A stretch of DNA of 64,000 nt. Source: Escherichia coli. GTDB taxonomy: Bacteria; Pseudomonadota; Gammaproteobacteria; Enterobacterales; Enterobacteriaceae. The notes beneath the pieces were generated by a model. It was not told where the DNA came from, did no database searches, and saw nothing but the letters and a program-made list of their open reading frames with translations. The DNA is taken from the NCBI RefSeq assembly GCF_048403405.1, contig NZ_CP183129.1. One strand, 5' to 3'. A program made the translations under genes and the position numbers. This document shows positions 4,054-33,707 of the stretch, piece by piece; within the stretch, counting starts at the first letter, position 1, and each line of letters begins with the position of its first letter.

Positions 4054-6195
4054 TCAAAATTCCATTTTCACCGTGAATTGCACTTCACGCGGATCGCCAA
4101 TCTGATTCCCCAGATTATTTGTGGCGATGGAAGAGGTGTAATACGTTTTATCAAACAGGTTTTTGACGTTTAATTGCAGTGTGACCGGATACTGCAATTT
4201 CATTTTGTATGCGGCGAAGGCATCGGCAACGAAATAGCCTGGCAGATAATAGTCAGCCCCATTGGTTGCCGAACGACGGCTTACGCCATGTCCACCACCG
4301 CCAAACGTCAGTGTGTTATTGCCTGGCATGTTATGAATGTCATAGGTCAGGAATAGCGAACCGGTATGACGAGGAACATTCGGCAATGGTTTCCCTGCAT
4401 AATCAGGATCTTCCAGAACCTTAGCATCGGTATAGCCGTAGCTGGCAATGATATTAATGTTTTCAGTTAATGCTCCCGCAAGGTCGACTTCTACCCCTCT
4501 TGAACGAACGCGGCCTGCCGTTTTGGCGATGGTTTCATCACCAATACTTTCGGTATACAACACGTTACGTTTATGGATATCAAACAGCGCAATATCTGCG
4601 GTGATACCATCGAACAGCTCGAATTTTGCCCCGACTTCGTAAGCATTAGATGATTCCGGTGGAAGATCTCCGATGTAGCTGGCAATTGACGATTGCGGCA
4701 TAAATGTTTGCGAATAATTAGCAAATAAGGATACCGATGGCGTCAGTTTGTAGACTAACCCCAGTTTGGGCGTCCATTGTTCATCGCGGCTGTCAGTATT
4801 GACATTAAAAGGACGGCCTTTACCCGCATACTGCGTGTAATACTGATAGCGGATCCCGGCGACGGCAATCCAGTTATCGGTCAGATAGAGCGCGTCCTGT
4901 GCATAAGCTGAGTAGCTCTCCTGTTTGATCGTCTGATCGCTGTCCGACGCCGAGACAGTTGTGCATTTGCTGGTATTGCCGTAAACAGGGTTGTAGATAT
5001 TGAAATCTTTAGCGTTTTTACAGCGAATCATATCTGTGCGCAGAAGATCATAATATTCATATGACACCCCACCCAGAATCTCATTATAGAACCCAGCAAT
5101 ATCAACATTCCCTTGCAGATCCGCACGAGTAGCATGCATACGCTGGGTAGATCCCTGAGTTGCATCAACACGCCGTGTCAGCGTTCCTGTCGTTGCATCA
5201 TACGCGGTAACACGAGCCTGATTATCGCCGTATTTATCCTGGCTGTAGCTGTAATCAAAGCGCGCTGTCCACTGGCTATTGAGATGATATTCTGCGTTGA
5301 GTTGCGCCAGATCGGACTGACCATCTGTAATATTAAACGGTTCGTCAAAACGTATTTTTCGATCAACGTTTACGGGCTGTTTCGTCGTAAGGTCGAAAAT
5401 CGTTCCACGATCGAACGGAGTTTTATAGTCCCGATGGGAATAGAGCATGGTTACTGTTGCATTATCACCAAACCAGGTGAGTGACGGGGCAATAAATGTA
5501 CTGCGCTCTTTACCGAAGTTTCGCCAGTAATCTTCATCCTGCACTTCCCCCGTCAGGCGGTATGCCAGCTGAGTGCCTTCAATGGGACCTGTGATATCAA
5601 GTTGCCCAGTGCCTCCGCCAAAACTGGAGGACGTGGCTGAGACAGAACCATGGAATGTTTTTTCCGGGCGCTTGGTCACGACGTTAATCAATCCACCAGG
5701 ATCGAGAATGCCATACAGCGTGGAGGCCGGACCTTTTAGCACTTCCACACGTTCTGTGGCGGCGTTGAAACTGCGAGGAAGTACAGTTCGCAGGCCGTTG
5801 GTCATGATGGAGCCATCCCGGTTAGCACCAAACCCACGACGTACAAAGGCGTCCTGAGTTCCGCCTAATGTATTGGTCTGTACCACGTTACTGACGTTAT
5901 AAAGCGCTTCATCCAGCGTCGTTGCATTCTGATTTTCCAGAACCTGATCGCTAACCGTATTGACCACCTGCGGGATATCCAGCATCGGCATATCGGTTAA
6001 TGTCGCCATGGAGGTGCTCAGAGGTTGATAACCATCGGTCGCCTCAGTTGCGGTATTTGCATCCGCTGTAACAGTGATTGTTTCGCCATCTTTGGTCGTT
6101 GCAGTGTCGGTTGCATGAATCATTGGTGCTGCAAAGAGCAGTGAAAAGAGCGCCCGACCTTTGATTCCTGAGAATGAAGGTGTGAACTTAGCCAT
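4054..6195 (-). CDS. TonB-dependent siderophore outer-membrane receptor
   Basis: 713 aa; signal peptide; TonB-box-like ETITVTA; plug and beta-barrel features; C-terminal aromatic residue (ends ...KMEF); not part of the K-12 parE-ygiN junction as I recall it. Confidence 0.9.
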   Translation of the reverse strand: MAKFTPSFSGIKGRALFSLLFAAPMIHATDTATTKDGETITVTADANTATEATDGYQPLSTSMATLTDMPMLDIPQVVNTVSDQVLENQNATTLDEALYNVSNVVQTNTLGGTQDAFVRRGFGANRDGSIMTNGLRTVLPRSFNAATERVEVLKGPASTLYGILDPGGLINVVTKRPEKTFHGSVSATSSSFGGGTGQLDITGPIEGTQLAYRLTGEVQDEDYWRNFGKERSTFIAPSLTWFGDNATVTMLYSHRDYKTPFDRGTIFDLTTKQPVNVDRKIRFDEPFNITDGQSDLAQLNAEYHLNSQWTARFDYSYSQDKYGDNQARVTAYDATTGTLTRRVDATQGSTQRMHATRADLQGNVDIAGFYNEILGGVSYEYYDLLRTDMIRCKNAKDFNIYNPVYGNTSKCTTVSASDSDQTIKQESYSAYAQDALYLTDNWIAVAGIRYQYYTQYAGKGRPFNVNTDSRDEQWTPKLGLVYKLTPSVSLFANYSQTFMPQSSIASYIGDLPPESSNAYEVGAKFELFDGITADIALFDIHKRNVLYTESIGDETIAKTAGRVRSRGVEVDLAGALTENINIIASYGYTDAKVLEDPDYAGKPLPNVPRHTGSLFLTYDIHNMPGNNTLTFGGGGHGVSRRSATNGADYYLPGYFVADAFAAYKMKLQYPVTLQLNVKNLFDKTYYTSSIATNNLGNQIGDPREVQFTVKMEF

Positions 6196-6295
6196 TTAGT
6201 CTGTTATCCCAAAAACTCACGGATTGTCGTGAGTGAAAATTGTTTCTTGTTGCTCACTAAGCACTATCCGTTTGTTATTTCACCATCGGATATGT

Positions 6296-6314
6296 AATTG
6301 AGAATCATTCAACC
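6296..6314. promoter_or_regulatory. Possible Fur box in the divergent receptor/ABC-transporter promoter region
   Basis: gtaattgagaatcattcaa matches about 12 of 19 positions of the Fur consensus GATAATGATAATCATTATC, with a conserved AATCATT core; weak on its own. Confidence 0.3.
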
Positions 6315-6568
6315 ATGCGGTGATGTAGTAGTAAATGAGAAATAACAAAAAATTGCTACATGTGTTTTTATGAGAGGTTAATGCAATTCAATTGATGGTA
6401 ATTTATTAATATTTAATGGTTTTATTTTTATCTTTAAAAATATTTCACCTGTTATTTACCTTGTTTTTGTATGGATTTTAACTTCTTGACTACTACATTT
6501 TGTGGCGTCAAACTCTCAAAGGAGAATGAGTTTTATTTTTGTTTGTCTTTGATTAAGTTGGCGTACAC

Positions 6569-7378
6569 GTGGCACATAACGCAAAAGGGCAGGGGCTGAT
6601 CCTCGACAATGTTTCTGCCGGGTATCACAAGAAAATCATTGTTGATGGTGTTTCTTTCTCCGTTCCCACAGAAAAAATGACCGTTCTGGTTGGGGCAAAC
6701 GGCTGTGGAAAGTCGACGTTGCTCAGCACCATTGCACGTATCTTGCAACCTATGGGCGGCTCGATATTGCTGGATGGTAAAGCGATTCACGAGCAACCAA
6801 CGAAAGCGTTATCCCGTAGACTTGGGATCTTGCCGCAGTCGCCATTATTGCCGGAGGGCTTAACCGTTTATGAACTGGTGTCGCGTGGGCGTTTTCCCTG
6901 GCAGAATTTCATTCGTCAATGGAGCGACGCCGACGAGCAGGCGGTAGAAGAGGCCCTGAAATTAACCGGTACGCAGGAGTTTGCACATTTACCTGTTGAA
7001 AAACTTTCTGGTGGGCAGCGCCAGCGTTGCTGGATTGCGATGGTGTTGGCGCAAAAGACGCCTTATATCCTGCTGGATGAACCCACAACCTGGCTTGATT
7101 TACGTTATCAGGTTGAAATTCTTGAGTTATTACATGATTTAACGCGTCATCACGGGCGTACAGTCGTCGTGGTGTTGCATGATCTGAATTTTGCCGTCAA
7201 TTATGGCGATACGTTGATATTTTTACGCCAGGGGAAAGTGGTGCGTGTGTTGAATGAGGGGGAGCATTGCACGCCTGAGCTGGTAAAAGCTGTCTTTGAC
7301 GTTGATGTTCACGCATCAATAAATCCTCTGACGGGAAAGCCGTTCTTCATGCCGTTTCGTGGTGTAGAAAAAGTATGA
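6569..7378 (+). CDS. ABC transporter ATP-binding protein (iron-siderophore importer type)
   Basis: Walker A GANGCGKST, signature LSGGQRQR, Walker B ILLDEPT; GTG start. Confidence 0.9.
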   Translation: MAHNAKGQGLILDNVSAGYHKKIIVDGVSFSVPTEKMTVLVGANGCGKSTLLSTIARILQPMGGSILLDGKAIHEQPTKALSRRLGILPQSPLLPEGLTVYELVSRGRFPWQNFIRQWSDADEQAVEEALKLTGTQEFAHLPVEKLSGGQRQRCWIAMVLAQKTPYILLDEPTTWLDLRYQVEILELLHDLTRHHGRTVVVVLHDLNFAVNYGDTLIFLRQGKVVRVLNEGEHCTPELVKAVFDVDVHASINPLTGKPFFMPFRGVEKV

Positions 7379-9414: not shown

Positions 9415-10362
9415 ATGCGTTTATTTTTTTCTCTGCTGATACTGTTGTCATTCTTTGCCCGCGCGACAGAACCTGTTCAGGTCTTTACTGATGATTTAGG
9501 GCGCAAAGTCACTGTTCCTGCTCATCCAAAGAGAATTGTCTCTTTACACGATCTTGATATCACTATTCCTCTGATTGAGCTCGGTGTACCTCCTGTCGCC
9601 AGCCACGGACGAACCCGGCCTGACGGTAGCCATTTCATTCGATCAGGCGCGTTATTGACAGGTGTCGACTTTGATAATTCATCGATCGCTTTTATTGGCA
9701 CCGCTGATATTGATATTGAAGCGATTGTGGCGGCAAAGCCTGACCTGATCATCACAGAACCGACCCGTAATACGCCCATTGAACAACTGGAAAAAATTGC
9801 GCCCACGGTGAGCATTGATCATCTCAAAGGAGGCGCGCCAGAAATCTACCGCAAGCTGGCAGAACTTACAGGAACGCAGTCGCAGCTGGCGATACTTGAA
9901 CGCCGCTATCAGGCACAAATCAATGCGCTGAAGGCGACGCTGGACAGCCAAAAAATAACGGTATCGGTGATTCAGGCAAATCAGGGAAAAATTAATGTGA
10001 TGCATAGCTATCATTCGCTGGGGCGGGTATTACGCGATGCTGGTTTTCGCTTTCCGCCGCTGATTGAGAGCATTCCTGAAGGTGGGCGAATGGATGTGAG
10101 CGCAGAGCGTTTACCTGAACTGGATGCCGATTTTGTTTTTGCAACCTGGCGCGGTGACACCGGTGGTAAACCTCAGGATGAGCTGGCAGCAATGGAAAAA
10201 GTCATGCCGGGATGGTGTCAGTTTCTGACGGCCTGTCGTTCCGGGCGCTATGTGCTGATTTCTCGTGAAGAGGCGATTTCTAACTCCTTTGCATCTCTGG
10301 GGCTGATGGCTGCGCAGATACAATCACAAATTGCGGGACGACCTCTACCGGAGGCTAAATGA
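9415..10362 (+). CDS. Periplasmic siderophore-binding protein of the ABC importer
   Basis: Start moved to the in-frame ATG at 9415, which has a GGGAG ribosome-binding site and begins a typical signal peptide (MRLFFSLLILLSFFARA); the tracked ORF begins upstream at 9352. Confidence 0.85.
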   Translation: MRLFFSLLILLSFFARATEPVQVFTDDLGRKVTVPAHPKRIVSLHDLDITIPLIELGVPPVASHGRTRPDGSHFIRSGALLTGVDFDNSSIAFIGTADIDIEAIVAAKPDLIITEPTRNTPIEQLEKIAPTVSIDHLKGGAPEIYRKLAELTGTQSQLAILERRYQAQINALKATLDSQKITVSVIQANQGKINVMHSYHSLGRVLRDAGFRFPPLIESIPEGGRMDVSAERLPELDADFVFATWRGDTGGKPQDELAAMEKVMPGWCQFLTACRSGRYVLISREEAISNSFASLGLMAAQIQSQIAGRPLPEAK

Positions 10363-11246
10363 TCCAGAAAGACAAAACGCGGGTTGATATTTATGGTGAG
10401 CGTTTTCGCACTCGCGCGAGTCAGTTAACGCCTGGGTTAAGAACTGTCGCAAGCTACATTAATGAGCATCGTGAAGTGGTACTCGAGCAAACGGCGATGG
10501 AAATTGCGGCCACGTTGAACACTTCCGATGCCACAGTTATCAGGGCTATACAGGCTCTGGGGTTTGCCGGGCTGCGTGATCTGAAACGCACACTGGAACA
10601 GTGGCTTGGTCCAGCCCTTAGTTCCAGCGAAAAGATGTCTACGACGGTGAGTAACTTGACGAGCGATGTTAACACCGCAATCGACTTTGTTCTTGAAGGG
10701 CATTTGTATACTTGTAATGTCCTGTCAGAGCCTGAAAACCGCCACGCGCTTGCGCAAGCTGTAGCGTTGTTGGTGCAGGCACGGCAAGTCGCTATTTTTG
10801 GCATTGGCGCTTCGGGTATCCTGGCGGACTATACCGCACGACTATTCAACCGCATAGGTTTGCCTGCCACGGCACTAAACCGTACGGGTATTGGCCTTGC
10901 CGAGCAACTGATCGCGCTTCAACGTGGCGATGTTCTGATCATGATGGCGCAAAAATCTGCGCACCGGGAAGGGCTGACAACGCTTCGTGAGGCGAGGCGG
11001 CTGGGGATCCCTGTTATTTTGCTGACAAACGCGCTGGATTCACGTTTTAGCAAAGACGCCAGTATCGTGATTCATGTTCCGCGCGGGGATGAAAGGGGGA
11101 AAACGCCACTACATGGTACGGTATTGTTGTGCCTGGAAATGATTGTTTGGTCGGTGGCTTCCGCGATGCCGCAGCGTGCGGTTAAAACCATTAAGCGAAT
11201 TAACGATTTCCATCGGGGTTTGAAAACGGGAAGAAAGAATGGCTAA
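10359..11246 (+). CDS. RpiR/MurR-family transcriptional regulator (helix-turn-helix plus SIS domain)
   Basis: 295 aa; N-terminal HTH and C-terminal sugar-isomerase-like domain pattern; start overlaps the binding-protein stop (ATGA). Confidence 0.8.
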   Translation: MIQKDKTRVDIYGERFRTRASQLTPGLRTVASYINEHREVVLEQTAMEIAATLNTSDATVIRAIQALGFAGLRDLKRTLEQWLGPALSSSEKMSTTVSNLTSDVNTAIDFVLEGHLYTCNVLSEPENRHALAQAVALLVQARQVAIFGIGASGILADYTARLFNRIGLPATALNRTGIGLAEQLIALQRGDVLIMMAQKSAHREGLTTLREARRLGIPVILLTNALDSRFSKDASIVIHVPRGDERGKTPLHGTVLLCLEMIVWSVASAMPQRAVKTIKRINDFHRGLKTGRKNG

Positions 11247-12466: not shown

Positions 12467-12946
12467 ATGTCAAATATCATATACTTATCAATTAAAGGAA
12501 AAACACAAGGTTTGATCTCTGAGGGCTGTGGTTCGTATGCATCTATTGGTAATAAATATCAAATAAATCATGTGGATGAAATTTTTGTTTTACAGTTCGA
12601 CCATTCTTTAAGTCGAGAATATAATGTAGTGCATCATCCCATAAAATTTTACAAGCCAATAGATAAATCCTCTCCTTTATTAAATGCTGCTCTTTCTGAA
12701 AATGAAGAGTTATCAGCTGTATTTAATTTTTATAGAATTAATTCTGGCGGTTGTATTGAAAGGTTTTACACAATTGAATTGCAAGGGGCATATTTATCGA
12801 ATATTCTGACTTGTTATCCACACTCAATTACACATGCGGGTAATCAACCGGAAGAGGTCATTGTTCTTAATTATAAAAATATAACATGGAAGCACCATAT
12901 CGCGAGTACGGAATCATATAGCTGTTGGGAAGAAAGGATTTTTTAA
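12467..12946 (+). CDS. hcp: Type VI secretion Hcp-family protein (orphan hcp)
   Basis: 159 aa; Hcp-like blocks IYLSIKGKTQGLISEGC, HHPIKFYKPIDKSSPLL and NYKNITWKHH; GGAGA ribosome-binding site 6 nt upstream; AT-rich gene. Confidence 0.8.
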   Translation: MSNIIYLSIKGKTQGLISEGCGSYASIGNKYQINHVDEIFVLQFDHSLSREYNVVHHPIKFYKPIDKSSPLLNAALSENEELSAVFNFYRINSGGCIERFYTIELQGAYLSNILTCYPHSITHAGNQPEEVIVLNYKNITWKHHIASTESYSCWEERIF

Positions 12947-12948
12947 AT

Positions 12949-13659
12949 ATGAAAAGCGATCTCACTATAAAAAATAGATATTGTACAATTCCACAAACGA
13001 AGTTCCGTAAATGGGATGAAATGGACGTTTTACTCTGGAAGTTAGGAAAAAATGATTCGCGTCGCCGTTCAGGAGTATATTATTTAAATGCTTATAAAGA
13101 TGCATATGTACAATATAATAGGGACAAAATAATTAAACATGCATATGCCGCAGGGATTCGTCCAGAGTTATTGGGCGGCGTGGCCTGGATTGAGTCAGGA
13201 GGTATGCCTGAAAATTATAAGTTTCAGATATATGAAACAAAAAGAATGATCGGATCGTTAGATATGCCTGAAAATAAAACATCATTTGGCTCAATGGGTA
13301 TACAAATACGAACCGCAGCGATTACTCTAGGCCTTGACCCTTCAGAATTAACTACCAGAAATCAGTTAGAGTTAGCGACATGCCTGATGGAAGATGATTT
13401 TACCTTTAAAATTGCTGCTACTCATTTAAGAGATCTTGCCCTTTTTGATTATCCCTCTTCGGCAACACTGTATATGACGAATGAGCAGTATATTATGGCT
13501 GGTATTAGATATAATCGTGGTGTTGAACGAGATTTGGGTTTTTTTATTTATTTAATTAATAATTTGCCTGCGCGTGATACAGATGATTATAAATTCATCT
13601 CTTATGGTATGAGGTTGTTAGAGATTAGAGAACATATCAAAAAATTGATCAATGAGTAA
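12949..13659 (+). CDS. Hypothetical protein with lysozyme/lytic-transglycosylase-like motifs; candidate Hcp-associated cell-wall-targeting effector
   Basis: Start set at the ATG at 12949 (GAAAGGA ribosome-binding site) 2 nt after the hcp stop; motifs WIESGG, FGSMGIQI and IRYNRG resemble the soluble-lytic-transglycosylase E-S / GLMQ / AYNAG pattern; function is inferred. Confidence 0.5.
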   Translation: MKSDLTIKNRYCTIPQTKFRKWDEMDVLLWKLGKNDSRRRSGVYYLNAYKDAYVQYNRDKIIKHAYAAGIRPELLGGVAWIESGGMPENYKFQIYETKRMIGSLDMPENKTSFGSMGIQIRTAAITLGLDPSELTTRNQLELATCLMEDDFTFKIAATHLRDLALFDYPSSATLYMTNEQYIMAGIRYNRGVERDLGFFIYLINNLPARDTDDYKFISYGMRLLEIREHIKKLINE

Positions 13660-18981: not shown

Positions 18982-21240
18982 ATGAGCGATATGGCAGAGC
19001 GCCTTGCGCTACATGAATTTACGGAAAACGCCTACTTAAACTACTCCATGTACGTGATCATGGACCGTGCGTTGCCGTTTATTGGTGATGGTCTGAAACC
19101 TGTTCAGCGCCGCATTGTGTATGCGATGTCTGAGCTGGGCCTGAATGCCAGCGCCAAATTTAAAAAATCGGCCCGTACCGTCGGTGACGTACTGGGTAAA
19201 TACCATCCGCACGGCGATATCGCCTGTTATGAAGCGATGGTCCTGATGGCGCAGCCGTTCTCTTACCGTTATCCGCTGGTTGATGGTCAGGGGAACTGGG
19301 GCACGCCGGACGATCCGAAATCGTTCGCAGCAATGCGTTACACCGAATCCCGGTTGTCGAAATATTCCGAGCTGCTATTGAGCGAGCTGGGGCAGGGGAC
19401 GGCTGACTGGGTGCCAAACTTCGACGGCACTTTGCAGGAGCCGAAAATGCTACCTGCCCGTCTGCCAAACATTTTGCTTAACGGCACCACCGGTATTGCC
19501 GTCGGCATGGCGACCGATATTCCACCGCATAACCTGCGTGAAGTGGCTCAGGCGGCAATCGCATTAATCGACCAGCCGAAAACCACGCTCGACCAGCTGC
19601 TGGATATCGTGCAGGGGCCGGATTATCCGACTGAAGCGGAAATTATCACTTCGCGCGCCGAGATCCGTAAAATCTACGAGAACGGACGTGGTTCAGTGCG
19701 TATGCGCGCGGTTTGGAAGAAAGAAGATGGCGCGGTGGTTATCAGCGCATTGCCGCATCAGGTTTCAGGTGCGCGCGTACTGGAGCAAATTGCTGCGCAA
19801 ATGCGCAACAAAAAGCTGCCGATGGTTGACGATCTGCGCGATGAATCTGACCACGAGAACCCGACCCGTCTGGTGATTGTGCCGCGTTCCAACCGCGTGG
19901 ATATGGATCAGGTGATGAACCACCTCTTCGCAACCACCGATCTGGAAAAGAGCTATCGTATTAACCTCAATATGATCGGTCTGGATGGTCGTCCGGCGGT
20001 GAAAAACCTGCTGGAAATCCTCTCCGAATGGCTGGTGTTCCGCCGCGATACCGTGCGCCGCCGACTGAACTATCGTCTGGAGAAAGTCCTCAAGCGCCTG
20101 CATATCCTCGAAGGTTTGCTGGTGGCGTTTCTCAATATCGACGAAGTGATTGAGATCATTCGTAATGAAGATGAACCGAAACCGGCGCTGATGTCGCGGT
20201 TTGGCCTTACGGAAACCCAGGCGGAAGCGATCCTCGAACTGAAACTGCGTCATCTTGCCAAACTGGAAGAGATGAAGATTCGCGGTGAGCAGAGTGAGCT
20301 GGAAAAAGAGCGCGACCAGTTGCAGGGCATTTTGGCTTCCGAGCGTAAAATGAATAACCTGCTGAAGAAAGAACTGCAGGCAGACGCGCAAGCCTACGGT
20401 GACGAACGTCGTTCGCCGTTGCAGGAACGCGAAGAAGCGAAAGCGATGAGCGAGCACGACATGCTGCCGTCTGAACCTGTCACCATTGTGCTGTCGCAGA
20501 TGGGCTGGGTACGCAGCGCTAAAGGCCATGATATCGACGCGCCGGGCCTGAATTATAAAGCGGGTGATAGCTTCAAAGCGGCGGTGAAAGGTAAGAGCAA
20601 CCAACCGGTAGTTTTTGTTGATTCCACCGGTCGTAGCTATGCCATCGACCCGATTACGCTGCCGTCGGCGCGTGGTCAGGGCGAACCGCTCACCGGCAAA
20701 TTAACGTTGCCGCCTGGGGCGACCGTTGACCATATGCTGATGGAAAGCGACGATCAGAAACTGCTGATGGCTTCCGATGCGGGTTACGGTTTCGTCTGCA
20801 CCTTTAACGATCTGGTAGCGCGTAACCGTGCAGGTAAGGCTTTGATCACCTTACCGGAAAATGCCCATGTTATGCCGCCGGTGGTGATTGAAGATGCTTC
20901 CGATATGCTGCTGGCAATCACTCAGGCAGGCCGTATGTTGATGTTCCCGGTAAGCGATCTGCCGCAGTTGTCGAAGGGCAAAGGCAATAAGATTATCAAC
21001 ATTCCGTCGGCAGAAGCCGCGCGTGGCGAGGATGGTCTGGCGCAACTGTACGTTCTGCCGCCGCAAAGCACGCTGACCATTCATGTTGGGAAACGCAAAA
21101 TTAAACTGCGTCCGGAAGAGCTACAGAAAGTCACTGGCGAACGTGGACGCCGCGGTACGTTGATGCGCGGTTTGCAGCGTATCGATCGTGTTGAGATCGA
21201 CTCTCCTCGCCGTGCCAGCAGCGGTGATAGCGAAGAGTAA
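18982..21240 (+). CDS. parC: DNA topoisomerase IV subunit A
   Basis: 752 aa; GyrA-like N-terminus including the active-site region (AAMRYTE). Confidence 0.97.
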
Positions 21241-21473
21241 TATGTCGGGGAGGGCGCTGTTTCCTCCCGCTTGCAAGGAACGCCGGATGAAACGTTAAGT
21301 CGTCATCCGGCAGCGTATTCAACCCCCGGAAACGATAAAAATTCCCTTGAAACCGTTGTTTATTCATGCGTTGCGATTAACAATACGCTTTTCCAGAGAG
21401 CGGCTTTTAACAATGCCCTAACCTGATTTCAGGTGACGTACAATGCCAGTCTCTCAGACCTTCAGAGGGTGTT

Positions 21474-22214
21474 ATGCTATATATCTTTCGTCTTATTATT
21501 ACCGTGATTTACAGCATCTTAGTCTGTGTATTCGGCTCCATTTACTGCCTTTTCAGCCCGCGTAACCCGAAACATGTGGCCACCTTTGGGCATATGTTTG
21601 GCCGTCTTGCGCCGCTTTTCGGCCTGAAAGTGGAGTGCCGCAAACCTGCAGACGCTGAAAGCTACGACGGCAATGCTATCTATATCGCTAACCACCAGAA
21701 CAACTATGACATGGTGACAGCATCGAACATTGTGCAACCGCCGACGGTGACGGTAGGTAAAAAGAGCTTGCTGTGGATCCCCTTCTTCGGGCAGTTGTAC
21801 TGGTTAACCGGCAACTTATTGATCGACAGAAACAATCGCACTAAAGCTCACGGCACTATTGCGGAAGTCGTGAATCATTTCAAAAAACGCCGTATTTCCA
21901 TCTGGATGTTCCCGGAAGGTACCCGCAGCCGTGGTCGCGGCCTGCTACCGTTCAAGACCGGGGCATTTCACGCGGCAATTGCGGCAGGCGTCCCGATTAT
22001 TCCCGTGTGCGTCTCTACAACTTCGAATAAGATTAATCTTAATCGGCTACACAACGGTCTGGTGATTGTCGAAATGCTGCCGCCAATTGATGTCAGTCAG
22101 TATGGCAAAGATCAGGTTCGCGAGTTGGCTGCCCATTGTCGTTCGATAATGGAACAAAAAATCGCTGATCTCGATAAAGAAGTCGCAGAGCGCGAAGCCG
22201 CCGGAAAAGTTTAA
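21474..22214 (+). CDS. plsC: 1-acyl-sn-glycerol-3-phosphate acyltransferase
   Basis: 246-codon ORF; acyltransferase motifs NHQNNYD and FPEGTR. Confidence 0.95.
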   Translation: MLYIFRLIITVIYSILVCVFGSIYCLFSPRNPKHVATFGHMFGRLAPLFGLKVECRKPADAESYDGNAIYIANHQNNYDMVTASNIVQPPTVTVGKKSLLWIPFFGQLYWLTGNLLIDRNNRTKAHGTIAEVVNHFKKRRISIWMFPEGTRSRGRGLLPFKTGAFHAAIAAGVPIIPVCVSTTSNKINLNRLHNGLVIVEMLPPIDVSQYGKDQVRELAAHCRSIMEQKIADLDKEVAEREAAGKV

Positions 22215-32721: not shown

Positions 32722-32972
32722 CTCGGGATTCCTGTTTTTATACGTCTGGATGTCTAAACTAGCATGAATATTCGCGGGCGCATCCTGAAGAATTGGCATA
32801 AAGCAGAAAATTTTCGCAAATGGCGTGCTGGTGACTTTTTTACTGCGTAAACGCAAGGAAAAGAAAGCAAAGGTACGGCAGTATGCAAATAGTAATGAGA
32901 ACGACTATCAATTCGACGTCGTTTTGATATTATTATGCGCAGATTTTGTGACTTGCGTCCTGGAGATACACA

Positions 32973-33707
32973 GTGGGTAATAATTTAATGCAGACGGATC
33001 TTTCCGTCTGGGGTATGTATCAGCACGCCGATATTGTCGTTAAGTGCGTGATGATTGGGCTTATTTTGGCCTCCGTAGTCACCTGGGCAATCTTCTTCAG
33101 TAAGAGCGTAGAGTTCTTCACTCAGAAGCGTCGCCTTAAGCGCGAGCAGCAACTGCTGGCTGAAGCGCGTTCCTTAAACCAGGCCAACGATATCGCCGCT
33201 GATTTTGGTAGCAAAAGCTTAAGCCTGCATTTGCTCAATGAAGCGCAGAATGAGCTGGAACTGTCAGAAGGCAGCGACGATAACGAAGGTATTAAAGAAC
33301 GTACCAGCTTCCGTCTGGAGCGTCGGGTCGCCGCAGTAGGTCGTCAAATGGGCCGCGGTAACGGTTATCTGGCAACCATCGGCGCGATTTCGCCGTTCGT
33401 TGGTCTGTTTGGTACGGTCTGGGGCATCATGAACAGCTTTATTGGTATCGCGCAAACGCAGACCACTAACCTGGCAGTCGTTGCGCCGGGTATTGCAGAA
33501 GCTCTGTTAGCAACGGCAATCGGCCTCGTGGCAGCGATTCCGGCGGTCGTTATCTATAACGTATTTGCACGCCAGATTGGCGGCTTTAAAGCGATGCTGG
33601 GTGATGTTGCAGCGCAGGTATTGTTGCTGCAAAGCCGTGACCTGGATCTGGAAGCCAGCGCCGCTGCGCATCCGGTTCGTGTCGCACAAAAATTACGCGC
33701 AGGATAA
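32973..33707 (+). CDS. exbB: Ton-system energiser ExbB
   Basis: 244 aa; GTG start; MotA/TolQ/ExbB family. Confidence 0.95.
   Translation: MGNNLMQTDLSVWGMYQHADIVVKCVMIGLILASVVTWAIFFSKSVEFFTQKRRLKREQQLLAEARSLNQANDIAADFGSKSLSLHLLNEAQNELELSEGSDDNEGIKERTSFRLERRVAAVGRQMGRGNGYLATIGAISPFVGLFGTVWGIMNSFIGIAQTQTTNLAVVAPGIAEALLATAIGLVAAIPAVVIYNVFARQIGGFKAMLGDVAAQVLLLQSRDLDLEASAAAHPVRVAQKLRAG

Follow-up and report, generated by a model that had tools for sequence, protein, structure and literature searches.

A predicted base-level map of the divergent fitA-fitB control region in the Escherichia coli fit iron-uptake island

The fitA-fitB region and related divergent control regions

The E. coli K-12 enterobactin regions fepA-fes, fepB-entC and fepD-entS are bidirectionally controlled by Fur. 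Like the fitA-fitB region, these regions (fepA-fes, 242 bp; fepB-entC, 374 bp; fepD-entS) separate divergent iron-transport operons by a long AT-rich intergenic stretch and share with it long leaders and Fur boxes that cover or closely follow the -10 elements, which in the case of fit are predicted. The Fur PWM used in this study finds Fur boxes in all three of them. The enterobactin boxes agree with the consensus at 13-16 of 19 positions, compared with 12 of 19 for the site adjacent to fitA (block A, below), and the enterobactin regions have neither a locus-specific second repressor nor TGTAGT boxes, both of which fit has. The fit promoter of E. coli i484 was reportedly also the subject of work by Ouyang and Isaacson in 2006 (Infect Immun 74:6949). 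The fitA-fitB region was shown to be a bidirectional promoter that drives lacZ in both orientations and is repressed by Fur and by the RpiR-family protein FitR independently of each other (Ouyang and Isaacson 2008, Open Microbiol J 2:94, PMC2593036). Iron limitation led to about 3-fold higher fit expression and fitA was raised 23-fold in a fur mutant, with the support for Fur repression consisting of data cited as 'unpublished' plus qRT-PCR, while an EMSA demonstrated that FitR shifts a 347-bp fitA-fitB fragment (PMC2593036). The reporters gave 139-168 Miller units in LB, and the responses to iron, Fur and FitR were clear (PMC2593036). Bidirectional activity, repression by iron and Fur, repression by FitR and binding of FitR to the fragment are therefore established by others; our literature search for start-site or Fur-ChIP data on fit returned none.

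The window, by which we mean the whole 64-kb stretch of E. coli DNA that was analyzed, contains at positions 6196-6568 the fitA-fitB intergenic region of the fit iron-uptake island. The sequence matches E. coli chromosomes at 100%, and the gene order parE / receptor / ABC ATPase / two permeases / binding protein / RpiR regulator / ygiN is that of the published fit locus, which identifies the locus as fit. The island is sited between parE and ygiN and is accessory, being carried by 1870 of 5426 complete genomes; this is a third of the complete genomes of E. coli, O157:H7 and ST131 among them. The genes relevant here are the following:

4054-6195, minus strand: fitA, TonB-dependent siderophore receptor, 713 aa (ORF; NCBIfam TIGR01783, 372 bits; RefSeq; published gene order)
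6569-7378, plus strand: fitB, ABC transporter ATPase, first gene of fitBCDE-fitR (ORF; RefSeq start; NCBIfam FecE-like)
10359-11246, plus strand: fitR, MurR/RpiR-family repressor (HTH_6 + SIS) acting on the fitA-fitB region (NCBIfam; published EMSA)

With fitA starting at 6195 on the minus strand and fitB at a GTG codon at 6569, the intergenic length is 373 bp. The GTG start of fitB is not preceded by a Shine-Dalgarno sequence, and variation between loci becomes codon-like from the GTG on; fitR is the last operon gene in every related locus compared. The GC content of the region is 30.6% versus 51% for the window and drops to 22-25% in the centre. A preliminary description of this DNA had proposed a strongly AT-rich, regulated, divergent control region, and both parts hold: composition and coordinates are as described, and the regulation is that of the published bidirectional, Fur-repressed promoter. 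In E. coli i484 fitA likewise diverges from fitBCDE-fitR across a fragment of about 350 bp that is repressed by Fur and FitR; the locus is the same and nothing differs in kind. Since the region had already been characterized as a Fur- and FitR-repressed promoter, no new kind of biology is added. The promoter system is known, and a base-level map of it is new but ordinary. What the map adds, all as predictions, are a pair of promoters, each with its Fur box, a pair of RccR-type FitR boxes whose spacer is constrained in length, and a covariation-supported leader RNA. The predicted site positions, the second Fur box, the TGTAGTAGT boxes and the leader hairpins go beyond the 2008 study, which left the Fur and FitR sites unmapped, and provide a design basis for the footprinting, spacer-phasing and leader-mutation work that its authors left open. 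Conservation, covariation, motif scores and spacing are established in the present analysis; exact start sites, the assignment of proteins to blocks, looping and the roles of the hairpins are what we infer. We consider it likely that the overall account, with two promoters, a Fur box at each, FitR boxes and a structured fitA leader, is correct.

Predicted promoters and Fur boxes

For phylogenetic footprinting, 31 orthologous loci from about 12 genera were compared, with 15 representative loci used for spacing and for scoring with the Fur PWM. Four elements, termed block A, box B, box C and Fur-B, are invariant or almost so across the 31 loci within otherwise diverged DNA. A sigma-70 scan of the region called no promoter at the scan threshold, and the promoters PfitA and PfitB, each of which matches the promoter consensus at only 8 of 12 positions, were therefore derived from conservation. 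Promoter elements and predicted Fur operators are located as follows:

6335-6330, minus strand: predicted PfitA -35 TTTACT, inside box B
6307-6315, minus strand: predicted PfitA extended -10 TGgTTGAAT (TG 6315-6314, hexamer 6312-6307), read from the sequence and conservation
6486-6491, plus strand: predicted PfitB -35 TTGACT, inside box C
6509-6514, plus strand: predicted PfitB -10 CAAACT, 17 nt past the -35, start predicted at ~6521 (conserved spacing)
6292-6312, no strand: block A, ATGTAATTGAGAATCATTCAA, predicted PfitA Fur operator overlapping the -10 hexamer and the start (conservation, Fur PWM)
6522-6544, no strand: Fur-B, GAGAATGAGTTTTATTTTTGTTT, predicted PfitB Fur operator, about +2 to +24 (Fur PWM, conservation)

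The arrangement would be one of two back-to-back sigma-70 promoters, with PfitA reading leftwards from a predicted start at about 6299-6300 and PfitB reading rightwards. At PfitA the TG and the TTGAAT are invariant in all loci retaining fitA, the sole variable base being the 'n' of TGn. At PfitB, TTGACT is followed at a distance of exactly 17 nt by a hexamer whose second base is A and whose sixth base is T in 15 of 15 representative loci, and the -35/-10 spacing of 17 nt is the same at both promoters in the loci examined.

The preliminary description had pointed to a Fur-like site, the 19-mer GTAATTGAGAATCATTCAA at 6294-6312 within block A. The site is present, but 66% of dinucleotide shuffles of the region match the 19-bp Fur consensus at least as well as it does (12/19), for which reason consensus counting was replaced by a PWM trained on 13 K-12 Fur promoters (leave-one-out range of the known sites, 5.7-20.7 bits). 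The exbB site in the window scores high with this PWM by construction, as it is identical to one of the training sites. GTAATTGAGAATCATTCAA scores 7.9 bits, a value equalled in 23% of shuffles (P about 0.23), and because shuffles so often reach such scores the site does not rise above chance by its sequence alone. What makes block A a credible Fur operator is its near-invariance together with its position over the predicted fitA -10 and +1: the 19-mer is identical in 27 of the 31 loci while the flanks diverge, and the block spans the predicted -10 to about +7.

A different assignment would make block A a FitR site or mere core promoter, with Fur acting only at Fur-B or spreading from there. 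In addition to the low score, two features of the block speak for this reading, namely that it opens with TGTAAT, one base off the RccR-type half-site TGTAGT discussed below, and that its 21 invariant bases exceed what a degenerate Fur box would need, part of them being the -10 hexamer and start site. However, the 23-fold derepression of fitA in the fur mutant (PMC2593036) calls for a Fur site near fitA, and block A is the top Fur PWM match within the fitA half of the region; its core GAATCATTC is a Fur-type palindrome. The natural variants are likewise compatible with a Fur box, as judged from their sequence: the Salmonella variant TGATAATCATT shifts towards the Fur consensus, and the change in Dryocola strikes the unspecified centre base. 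In a Tatumella locus without fitA, moreover, fitR and TGTAGTAGT are kept while block A is lost together with fitA. We therefore regard a purely FitR or core-promoter role of block A as unlikely.

The case for Fur-B is also made by its score. The 19-mer at 6522-6540 matches the consensus at 13 of 19 positions and reaches 12.9 bits on the minus strand, inside the leave-one-out range of the 13 known K-12 sites; 1.7% of shuffles do as well (P 0.017), and just three positions in the 64 kb score as high. It is the top match of the whole intergenic region in 15 of 15 representative loci (8.8-14.0 bits), and its variation stays within Fur-like sequence space, as in Dryocola, where the site reads GATAATGATACTTATTACT by hand and scores 14/19 by script. 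In the proposed mechanism, Fur-Fe2+ would, when iron is plentiful, bind the Fur box at or just after each -10, block A (6292-6312) at fitA and Fur-B (6522-6544) at fitB, and thereby block RNA polymerase.

The stronger Fur box at 6522-6540 does not figure in the preliminary description. A mini-ORF overlapping Fur-B (MSFIFVCL*, 6526-6552) was rejected as coding, as its Shine-Dalgarno sequence lies 1 nt from the ATG and its length and frame vary across genera.

Candidate FitR boxes and the spacer between them

Pseudomonas RccR, an RpiR-family protein of HTH_6 and SIS domains, is a tetramer that represses its own gene and recognizes the operators TGTAGT-N3-ACTACA (15-bp) and TGTAGT-N16-ACTACA (28-bp) (PMC5489143, PMC11014249). 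FitR has the same family assignment and domain composition, and its best match among solved structures is RccR (8JU9; E 3e-15 between distant relatives). The fitA-fitB region contains the following elements:

6324-6335, no strand: box B, TGTAGTAGTAAA, predicted FitR half-operator holding the PfitA -35 (conservation, RccR half-site)
6355-6360, no strand: GCTACA, which partners box B in inverted orientation (TGTAGT-N25-CTACA) and may be the other half of a FitR operator (partial conservation)
6362-6483, no strand: central AT-rich spacer, ~22% GC, of fixed length and poor sequence conservation
6486-6497, no strand: box C, TTGACTACTACA, inverted copy of box B, predicted FitR half-operator holding the PfitB -35 (conservation)

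The common core of the two boxes is TGTAGTAGT, located at 6324-6332 and, as its reverse complement, at 6489-6497, each copy overlapping a -35 hexamer. These are the only two copies in 64 kb, where 0.13 would be expected, and both lie inverted in the fitA-fitB region. Box B retains TGTAGTAGT exactly in 31 of 31 loci and box C in 30 of 31. The partner of box B is less constant: counting from the start of TGTAGTAGT, CTACA is found at +31 or +32 in Escherichia, Enterobacter, Silvania, Kosakonia, Citrobacter and Tatumella, is ACTACG in Salmonella and Dryocola, and is absent in the Raoultella, Erwinia, Sodalis and Serratia loci. In addition to TGTAGTAGT, the Tatumella locus that lacks fitA retains the CTACA partner, box C and Fur-B.

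Since the boxes match the TGTAGT/ACTACA half-site of RccR, the closest solved relative of FitR, they are probably FitR operators; the RccR probe PaceA also contains TGTAGTAGT. The relation between the two proteins is distant, which makes shared specificity an analogy. The half-site spacings at fit, N25 and about N162, differ from the N3 or N16 of RccR, so that the fit boxes would not be an RccR site as such but would only work like one, and the regulated targets differ as well, being an iron transporter for FitR and carbon metabolism for RccR. FitR would bind both TGTAGTAGT boxes over the -35 hexamers, probably together with the partner CTACA at 6356-6360, and would thus add a second layer, independent of Fur, in which repression is 2- to 5-fold. 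FitR and its likely operators, the TGTAGTAGT copies at both -35 hexamers, are absent from the preliminary description.

The DNA between the boxes is conserved in a different manner. In 17 loci the spacer is exactly 119 nt long without any indel, and its ungapped identity is 0.49 versus 0.62 at fitB third codon positions. The fixed length hints that a single FitR oligomer may touch both boxes. Looping between distant operators is known from repression in lac, gal, ara and deo. Compared with these systems, the fit boxes lie about 165 bp apart, with a spacer that is conserved in length and not in sequence. Across genera the box-to-box distance is 168-169, 181, 184 or 189-191; the main classes differ by 21-22 bp, about two helical turns, as in looping, whereas the loci of Raoultella (181) and Tatumella (184) are off whole helical turns and do not fit. 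Bridging of the boxes by a FitR loop is purely what we infer. In such a loop, the AT-rich spacer would be selected for length and flexibility and not for sequence. The most far-reaching reading joins both halves of the region: an RccR-like FitR tetramer would loop the two TGTAGTAGT half-operators and repress both promoters at once, and the two-hairpin fitA leader (below), with its conserved unpaired GRGCAAUGA motif possibly serving RyhB or Hfq for docking, would control a TonB-dependent receptor post-transcriptionally as an element so far undescribed. We hold this combined reading only tentatively and think it more doubtful than probable. An IHF consensus, WATCAANNNNTTR, in the spacer was dropped as a candidate, as it is a perfect match in one E. 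coli allele (L002) and in none of the others.

The preliminary description had also raised silencing by H-NS, and control might indeed consist mainly in the xenogeneic silencing of a promoter region that is AT-rich and was acquired horizontally. AT-richness and horizontal acquisition, the marks of an H-NS target, are both found here: the GC content falls from 51% in the window to 30.6% in the region and about 22% in its centre, and the island is accessory. However, the published reporter activities in LB, responsive to iron, Fur and FitR (PMC2593036), do not describe a silent promoter, and in other genera the spacer has 32-39% GC and yet all boxes persist. Silencing as the main mode of control is accordingly rather improbable, a shade more so than the reassignment of block A; it might instead come on top of the other controls without replacing them.

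Hairpins of the predicted fitA leader

From the predicted start, the fitA transcript would carry a leader of about 105 nt with one hairpin (HP2) near the 5' end and a second one (HP1) just before the ribosome-binding site:

6265-6292, minus strand: HP2, outer stem TATCCG/CGGATA, ~7 nt after the predicted fitA start (folding, RNAalifold)
6241-6250, minus strand: conserved unpaired motif G(G/A)GCAA(U/C)(G/A)A in the fitA mRNA, GUGAGCAAC here, between the hairpins (GCAA invariant in the alignment)
6215-6234, minus strand: HP1, 5' leader hairpin with a 7-bp stem and 6-nt loop; UUUUU and the GGGA ribosome-binding region come next (folding, covariation)

HP1 corresponds to the inverted repeat of the preliminary description, which is real and keeps its pairing through compensatory changes; its arms are ACTCACG (6215-6221) and CGTGAGT (6228-6234), so that it ends at 6234 and not at 6235. 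The further proposal that the repeat forms a hairpin in the receptor mRNA leader is borne out, as it lies within the predicted fitA leader and its structure is conserved. HP1 has a dG of -9.6 kcal/mol (z = -4.06 versus shuffles), HP2 one of -9.1 kcal/mol (z -3.3); the whole fitA leader folds with z = -2.79 and the 65-nt stretch around HP1 with z = -1.42. For HP2, RNAalifold recovers the hairpin with compensatory changes in three of five pairs; helix 1 is 91.5% paired in the covariance-model alignment described next, and the hairpin is retained in Kosakonia, Raoultella and Erwinia. MAFFT with RNAalifold missed HP1 because the hairpin varies in length, and the sequences were realigned with a covariance model from five Enterobacter leaders. 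All eight HP1 pairs of the model then show compensatory changes among 22 orthologues, and 13 of 18 pairs do so over the leader, where 88.4% of cells are paired compared with 29-40% for slid structures, the controls being given alongside because counts from an alignment made with that covariance model lean towards the modelled structure. The leader covariation score was reached by 0 of 500 shuffles. G.U cells outnumber A.C cells on the fitA-sense strand (27 vs 11), and a variant of HP1 in a second E. coli genome is G.U on this strand and A.C on the opposite one. Both hairpins are weak or absent in Sodalis and Dryocola. A search of Rfam over 6000-6800 gave only sub-threshold eukaryotic miRNA/snoRNA noise, with no family threshold reached. 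HP1 and HP2 would most likely work as RNA elements that affect the stability of the mRNA or the initiation of translation.

HP1 could alternatively be an intrinsic terminator or attenuator, in which case most PfitA transcripts would stop at the U-run 6210-6214, leaving a leader RNA of ~90 nt and allowing regulated read-through. The E. coli hairpin would suit this role, as four of its seven stem pairs are G-C and UUUUU follows directly, and a U-rich run also follows HP1 in Enterobacter and Kosakonia. On the other hand, the terminator scan did not report HP1, Serratia and Erwinia have no U-run after the hairpin, the leader alignments show no conserved alternative (antiterminator) pairing, and the U-rich stretch runs into the conserved GGGA(A/U)AAC ribosome-binding region. 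Termination at HP1 thus appears about as improbable as the FitR or core-promoter reading of block A. That the repeat is instead a palindromic protein site in the DNA is very improbable: it is a perfect 7-N6-7 palindrome in the window, but the arm sequence differs between genera while pairing stays, with compensation at every pair, which is the signature of a folded strand and not of a protein recognition sequence, and the variant of the second E. coli genome pairs as G.U on the fitA-sense strand only.

The unpaired motif between HP1 and HP2 is complementary to the RyhB seed (RyhB nt 39-47), but the energies of the seed duplex with it are not better than those of shuffles (P mostly above 0.1), and RyhB pairing is retained merely as a lead. 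Enterobacter fitA leaders have an upstream ATG, which was rejected as coding: it lies 60 nt away and in frame with fitA in some loci, lies 58 nt away and out of frame in others, and is absent in E. coli. Long-range helices occluding the fitA start codon are not claimed, since the minimum-free-energy partners differ between Escherichia and Enterobacter.

The least credible reading, that AT-rich non-coding DNA has produced both the Fur-like site and the hairpin by chance, could draw on the frequency of 12/19 matches among shuffles and on the modest folding of the 65-nt hairpin stretch, but it is already refuted by the comparative data, namely the near-invariance of the Fur-like site (27/31 loci) and the covariation of the hairpin across about 12 genera, and regulation through the fragment is published (PMC2593036).

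Gene content and known regulation of the locus

The segment 5800-7000 of the window is 100% identical to several complete E. coli genomes. Open reading frames, NCBIfam matches and the RefSeq annotation place the genes nudF-yqiB-cpdA-yqiA-parE ahead of a receptor gene, and identify the following features:

4054-6195, minus strand: TonB-dependent siderophore receptor (fitA)
6196-6568: 373-bp gap between the divergent genes fitA and fitB
GTG start at 6569, plus strand: ABC ATPase (fitB)
after fitB, plus strand: two FecCD permeases, then a periplasmic binding protein
10359-11246, plus strand: MurR/RpiR regulator (fitR)

From receptor to regulator, these genes make up the fit locus (fitA; fitB, C, D, E; fitR) of Ouyang and Isaacson, an accessory island carried by 1870 of 5426 complete E. 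coli genomes; ygiN and mdaB come next after fitR. Adjoining mdaB, at 12467-13659, the RefSeq annotation shows a gene for an Hcp-family type VI secretion effector and then a hypothetical gene, which may represent a second accessory segment beside the fit island.

The fitA-fitB intergenic DNA was reported in 2008 to drive lacZ in both orientations, with approximately 3-fold higher expression under iron limitation, and a 347-bp intergenic fragment was shifted by purified FitR (PMC2593036). The authors stated that they did not know exactly where Fur and FitR bind (PMC2593036), and no later mapping of these sites in the fit region was found in the literature searched. The nature of the region was thus already known, leaving its internal anatomy to be worked out. 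The preliminary description, which proposed a divergent control region under Fur with a hairpin in the leader, was right in its core reading of a region already in the literature. The operator map, spacer constraint and conserved leader presented here are new, testable details of it, ordinary in kind.

With 30.6% GC compared to 51% for the window and a minimum of about 22-25% in its centre, the region is indeed AT-rich, as had been described. The H-NS-type architecture suggested on that occasion may apply, the only points in its favour being how AT-rich the region is and that the island is accessory; the published fit reporters are active in LB and responsive to iron (PMC2593036).

Conserved blocks and predicted Fur operators

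A FitA scan with one genome per species yielded 21 orthologous loci from Escherichia, Enterobacter, Lelliottia, Silvania and Huaxiibacter (FitA 82-99% identical), to which a FitR search with context look-up added loci from Kosakonia, Raoultella, Erwinia, Sodalis, Salmonella, Serratia, Tatumella, a Citrobacter-like genome and Dryocola (FitR 69-88% identical). Gene order is the same across the collected loci with the sole exception of Tatumella, which lacks fitA, and fitR was found in all of them. The intergenic alignment is mostly diverged, with a few invariant blocks:

block A, 6292-6312: ATGTAATTGAGAATCATTCAA; the 19-mer first proposed as a Fur-like site (6294-6312) is exact in 27 of 31 loci
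box B, 6324-6335: TGTAGTAGTAAA; TGTAGTAGT is exact in 31 of 31 loci
box C, 6486-6497: TTGACTACTACA; exact in 30 of 31 loci
Fur-B, 6522-6544: GAGAATGAGTTTTATTTTT(A/G)TTT; conserved, with limited variation

The Tatumella locus (L040, 772-1350), in which azlC and azlD stand upstream in place of fitA, retains TGTAGTAGT, CTACA at +32, TTGACTACTACA and a 13.8-bit Fur box (Fur-B), while block A is gone; it is a natural deletion that splits fitA-specific elements from shared ones.

Fur sites were scored with a position weight matrix built from the best sites of 13 well-established Fur-repressed K-12 promoter regions (fepA-fes, fepD-entS, fepB-entC, fhuA, cirA, fiu, exbB, tonB, fecI, fhuE, ryhB, feoA and fhuF); in leave-one-out scoring these known sites give between 5.7 and 20.7 bits. 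The 19-mer at 6294-6312 matches the Fur consensus at 12/19 positions, as do 66% of sequences obtained by dinucleotide shuffling of the region, and its 7.9 bits are reached by 23% of shuffles; judged by sequence alone, it does no better than chance. The top match of the region is Fur-B (6522-6540; 13/19, 12.9 bits), whose score is reached by only 1.7% of shuffles and is equalled or exceeded at only three positions of the 64-kb window. One of these is the exbB Fur box AGTAATGAGAACGACTATC (32891-32909, in the metC-exbB intergenic region, exbB start at 32973), an internal positive control whose identical K-12 site was in the training set. In 15/15 representative loci the best intergenic match lies 5-13 nt past the fitB -10 (8.8-14.0 bits), and between genera the Fur-B sequence drifts inside Fur-like space, reading GATAATGATACTTATTACT by hand in Dryocola. 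The preliminary description missed both this stronger Fur box and FitR.

Block A is the top matrix match of the fitA half and covers the predicted fitA -10 and start site. Two natural single-base substitutions, one in Salmonella (TGATAATCATT, nearer the consensus) and one in Dryocola (at the unspecified centre base), are compatible with a Fur box; L013 has a one-base deletion in addition. Because fitA is strongly Fur-dependent (PMC2593036), we take block A with moderate confidence to be the Fur operator of fitA.

Elsewhere in the window, GGAAACGATAAAAATTCCC at 21328-21346, in the gap between the open reading frames 18982-21240 and 21474-22214, scores 14.2 bits, perhaps by chance, perhaps as a Fur site that has escaped annotation. 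Overlapping Fur-B is a mini-ORF (6526-6552; ATG AGT TTT ATT TTT GTT TGT CTT TGA, MSFIFVCL*) with AGGAG just 1 nt before its ATG; as neither frame nor length is conserved, it is probably not translated.

Predicted promoters, candidate FitR sites and the spacer

Read along the fitA strand, box B is TTTACTACTACA, with a further 17 nt leading to TGgTTGAAT, a predicted extended -10 whose TG and hexamer are invariant wherever fitA is retained, only the 'n' of TGn varying; this would place the fitA start near 6299 and give a leader of about 105 nt. Box C begins with TTGACT on the fitB strand, and exactly 17 nt past it a hexamer with A2 and T6 is found in 15/15 representative loci (CAAACT, CAAAAT, CAATAT, CATGAT, TAAGAT and others), pointing to a fitB start near 6521. 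A consensus promoter scan of the region reported neither predicted promoter, since each matches the consensus at only 8/12 positions.

In Escherichia, Salmonella and Enterobacter fitB starts with GTG, and no Shine-Dalgarno sequence precedes it (window 6545-6572). In Kosakonia, Raoultella, Sodalis, Serratia and others (L034-L037, L039-L042) fitB starts about four codons earlier at ATGCCACAGCA..., with a GGAG Shine-Dalgarno before it and a leader 50-80 nt longer, a piece apparently deleted in the lineage of E. coli.

There are exactly two copies of TGTAGTAGT in the 64 kb (0.13 expected); both lie in the fitA-fitB region in mutually inverted orientation, and each overlaps one predicted -35 hexamer. 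Among solved structures the top match of FitR is Pseudomonas aeruginosa RccR (8JU9, E 3e-15), an RpiR-family tetramer with footprinted half-sites TGTAGT/ACTACA separated by N3 or N16 spacers; one RccR probe contains TGTAGTAGT (PMC5489143, PMC11014249). By analogy, we infer that the two boxes are candidate FitR sites. They share the half-site of the RccR operators but differ from the N3/N16 spacing, and would thus work like RccR sites rather than be members of that group. A CTACA partner (6355-6360) lies 25 nt past TGTAGT in many genera, not all. As Tatumella keeps TGTAGTAGT despite the loss of fitA and block A, the conservation of box B reflects more than a role as the fitA -35.

Between the conserved blocks, 119 nt show zero indels across 17 loci from four genera, at an ungapped identity of 0.49, below the 0.62 at fitB third codon positions. 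The E. coli spacer (6362-6483) is likewise invariant in length and hypervariable in sequence, more polymorphic than its flanks: the intergenic region is 90-95% identical in 1073 of the 1870 E. coli genomes, compared to mostly 95-99% for the 1.2-kb stretch with flanking genes. Between genera the TGTAGT-to-ACTACA distance is 168-169, 181, 184 or 189-191 bp, and the two main classes are 21-22 bp apart, about two helical turns. This is consistent with, though not proof of, a requirement for the boxes on the same helix face, as in a FitR-mediated loop. Enterobacter and relatives (L004-L022) also carry a CCCTGG-N6-CAGGG inverted repeat, aligned to about 6452-6475 and some 15-35 nt upstream of the fitB -35, which is degenerate in E. 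coli.

Structure of the predicted fitA leader

The inverted repeat pointed out at the outset is real: its arms (6215-6221 / 6228-6234) form hairpin HP1, the fitA-strand RNA folding at -9.6 kcal/mol (z = -4.06), and the structure covaries in the fitA leader. With MAFFT and RNAalifold, the one hairpin recovered was HP2, which lies upstream (6265-6292) and has 3/5 pairs compensatory. A covariance model of HP2 and HP1 was built from five Enterobacter leaders and all 22 sequences were realigned to it, resulting in 88.4% of cells paired versus 29-40% with partners slid. In this alignment, whose pair counts lean towards the model because it is fitted to it, compensatory changes occur in 13 of 18 leader pairs, including all 8/8 HP1 pairs, and the observed covariation score was reached by 0/500 shuffles. 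The excess of G.U over A.C cells (27 versus 11) mildly favours the fitA-sense strand as the folded one. The whole leader folds with z = -2.79 and matches none of the Rfam families. The RyhB seed (nt 39-47) could pair with a conserved unpaired motif of the leader, its complement G(G/A)GCAA(U/C)(G/A)A at about 6241-6250 on the minus strand; in energy the duplexes are no better than those of shuffles, and pairing with RyhB would be only a lead.

Our best guess is that the leader hairpin is an RNA-level element acting on stability or ribosome access. A terminator fits E. coli, where the HP1 stem is followed by UUUUU, but Serratia and Erwinia have no U-run past the hairpin and a conserved antiterminator was not found. 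HP1 as a protein operator is ruled out, since its arm sequences change between loci.
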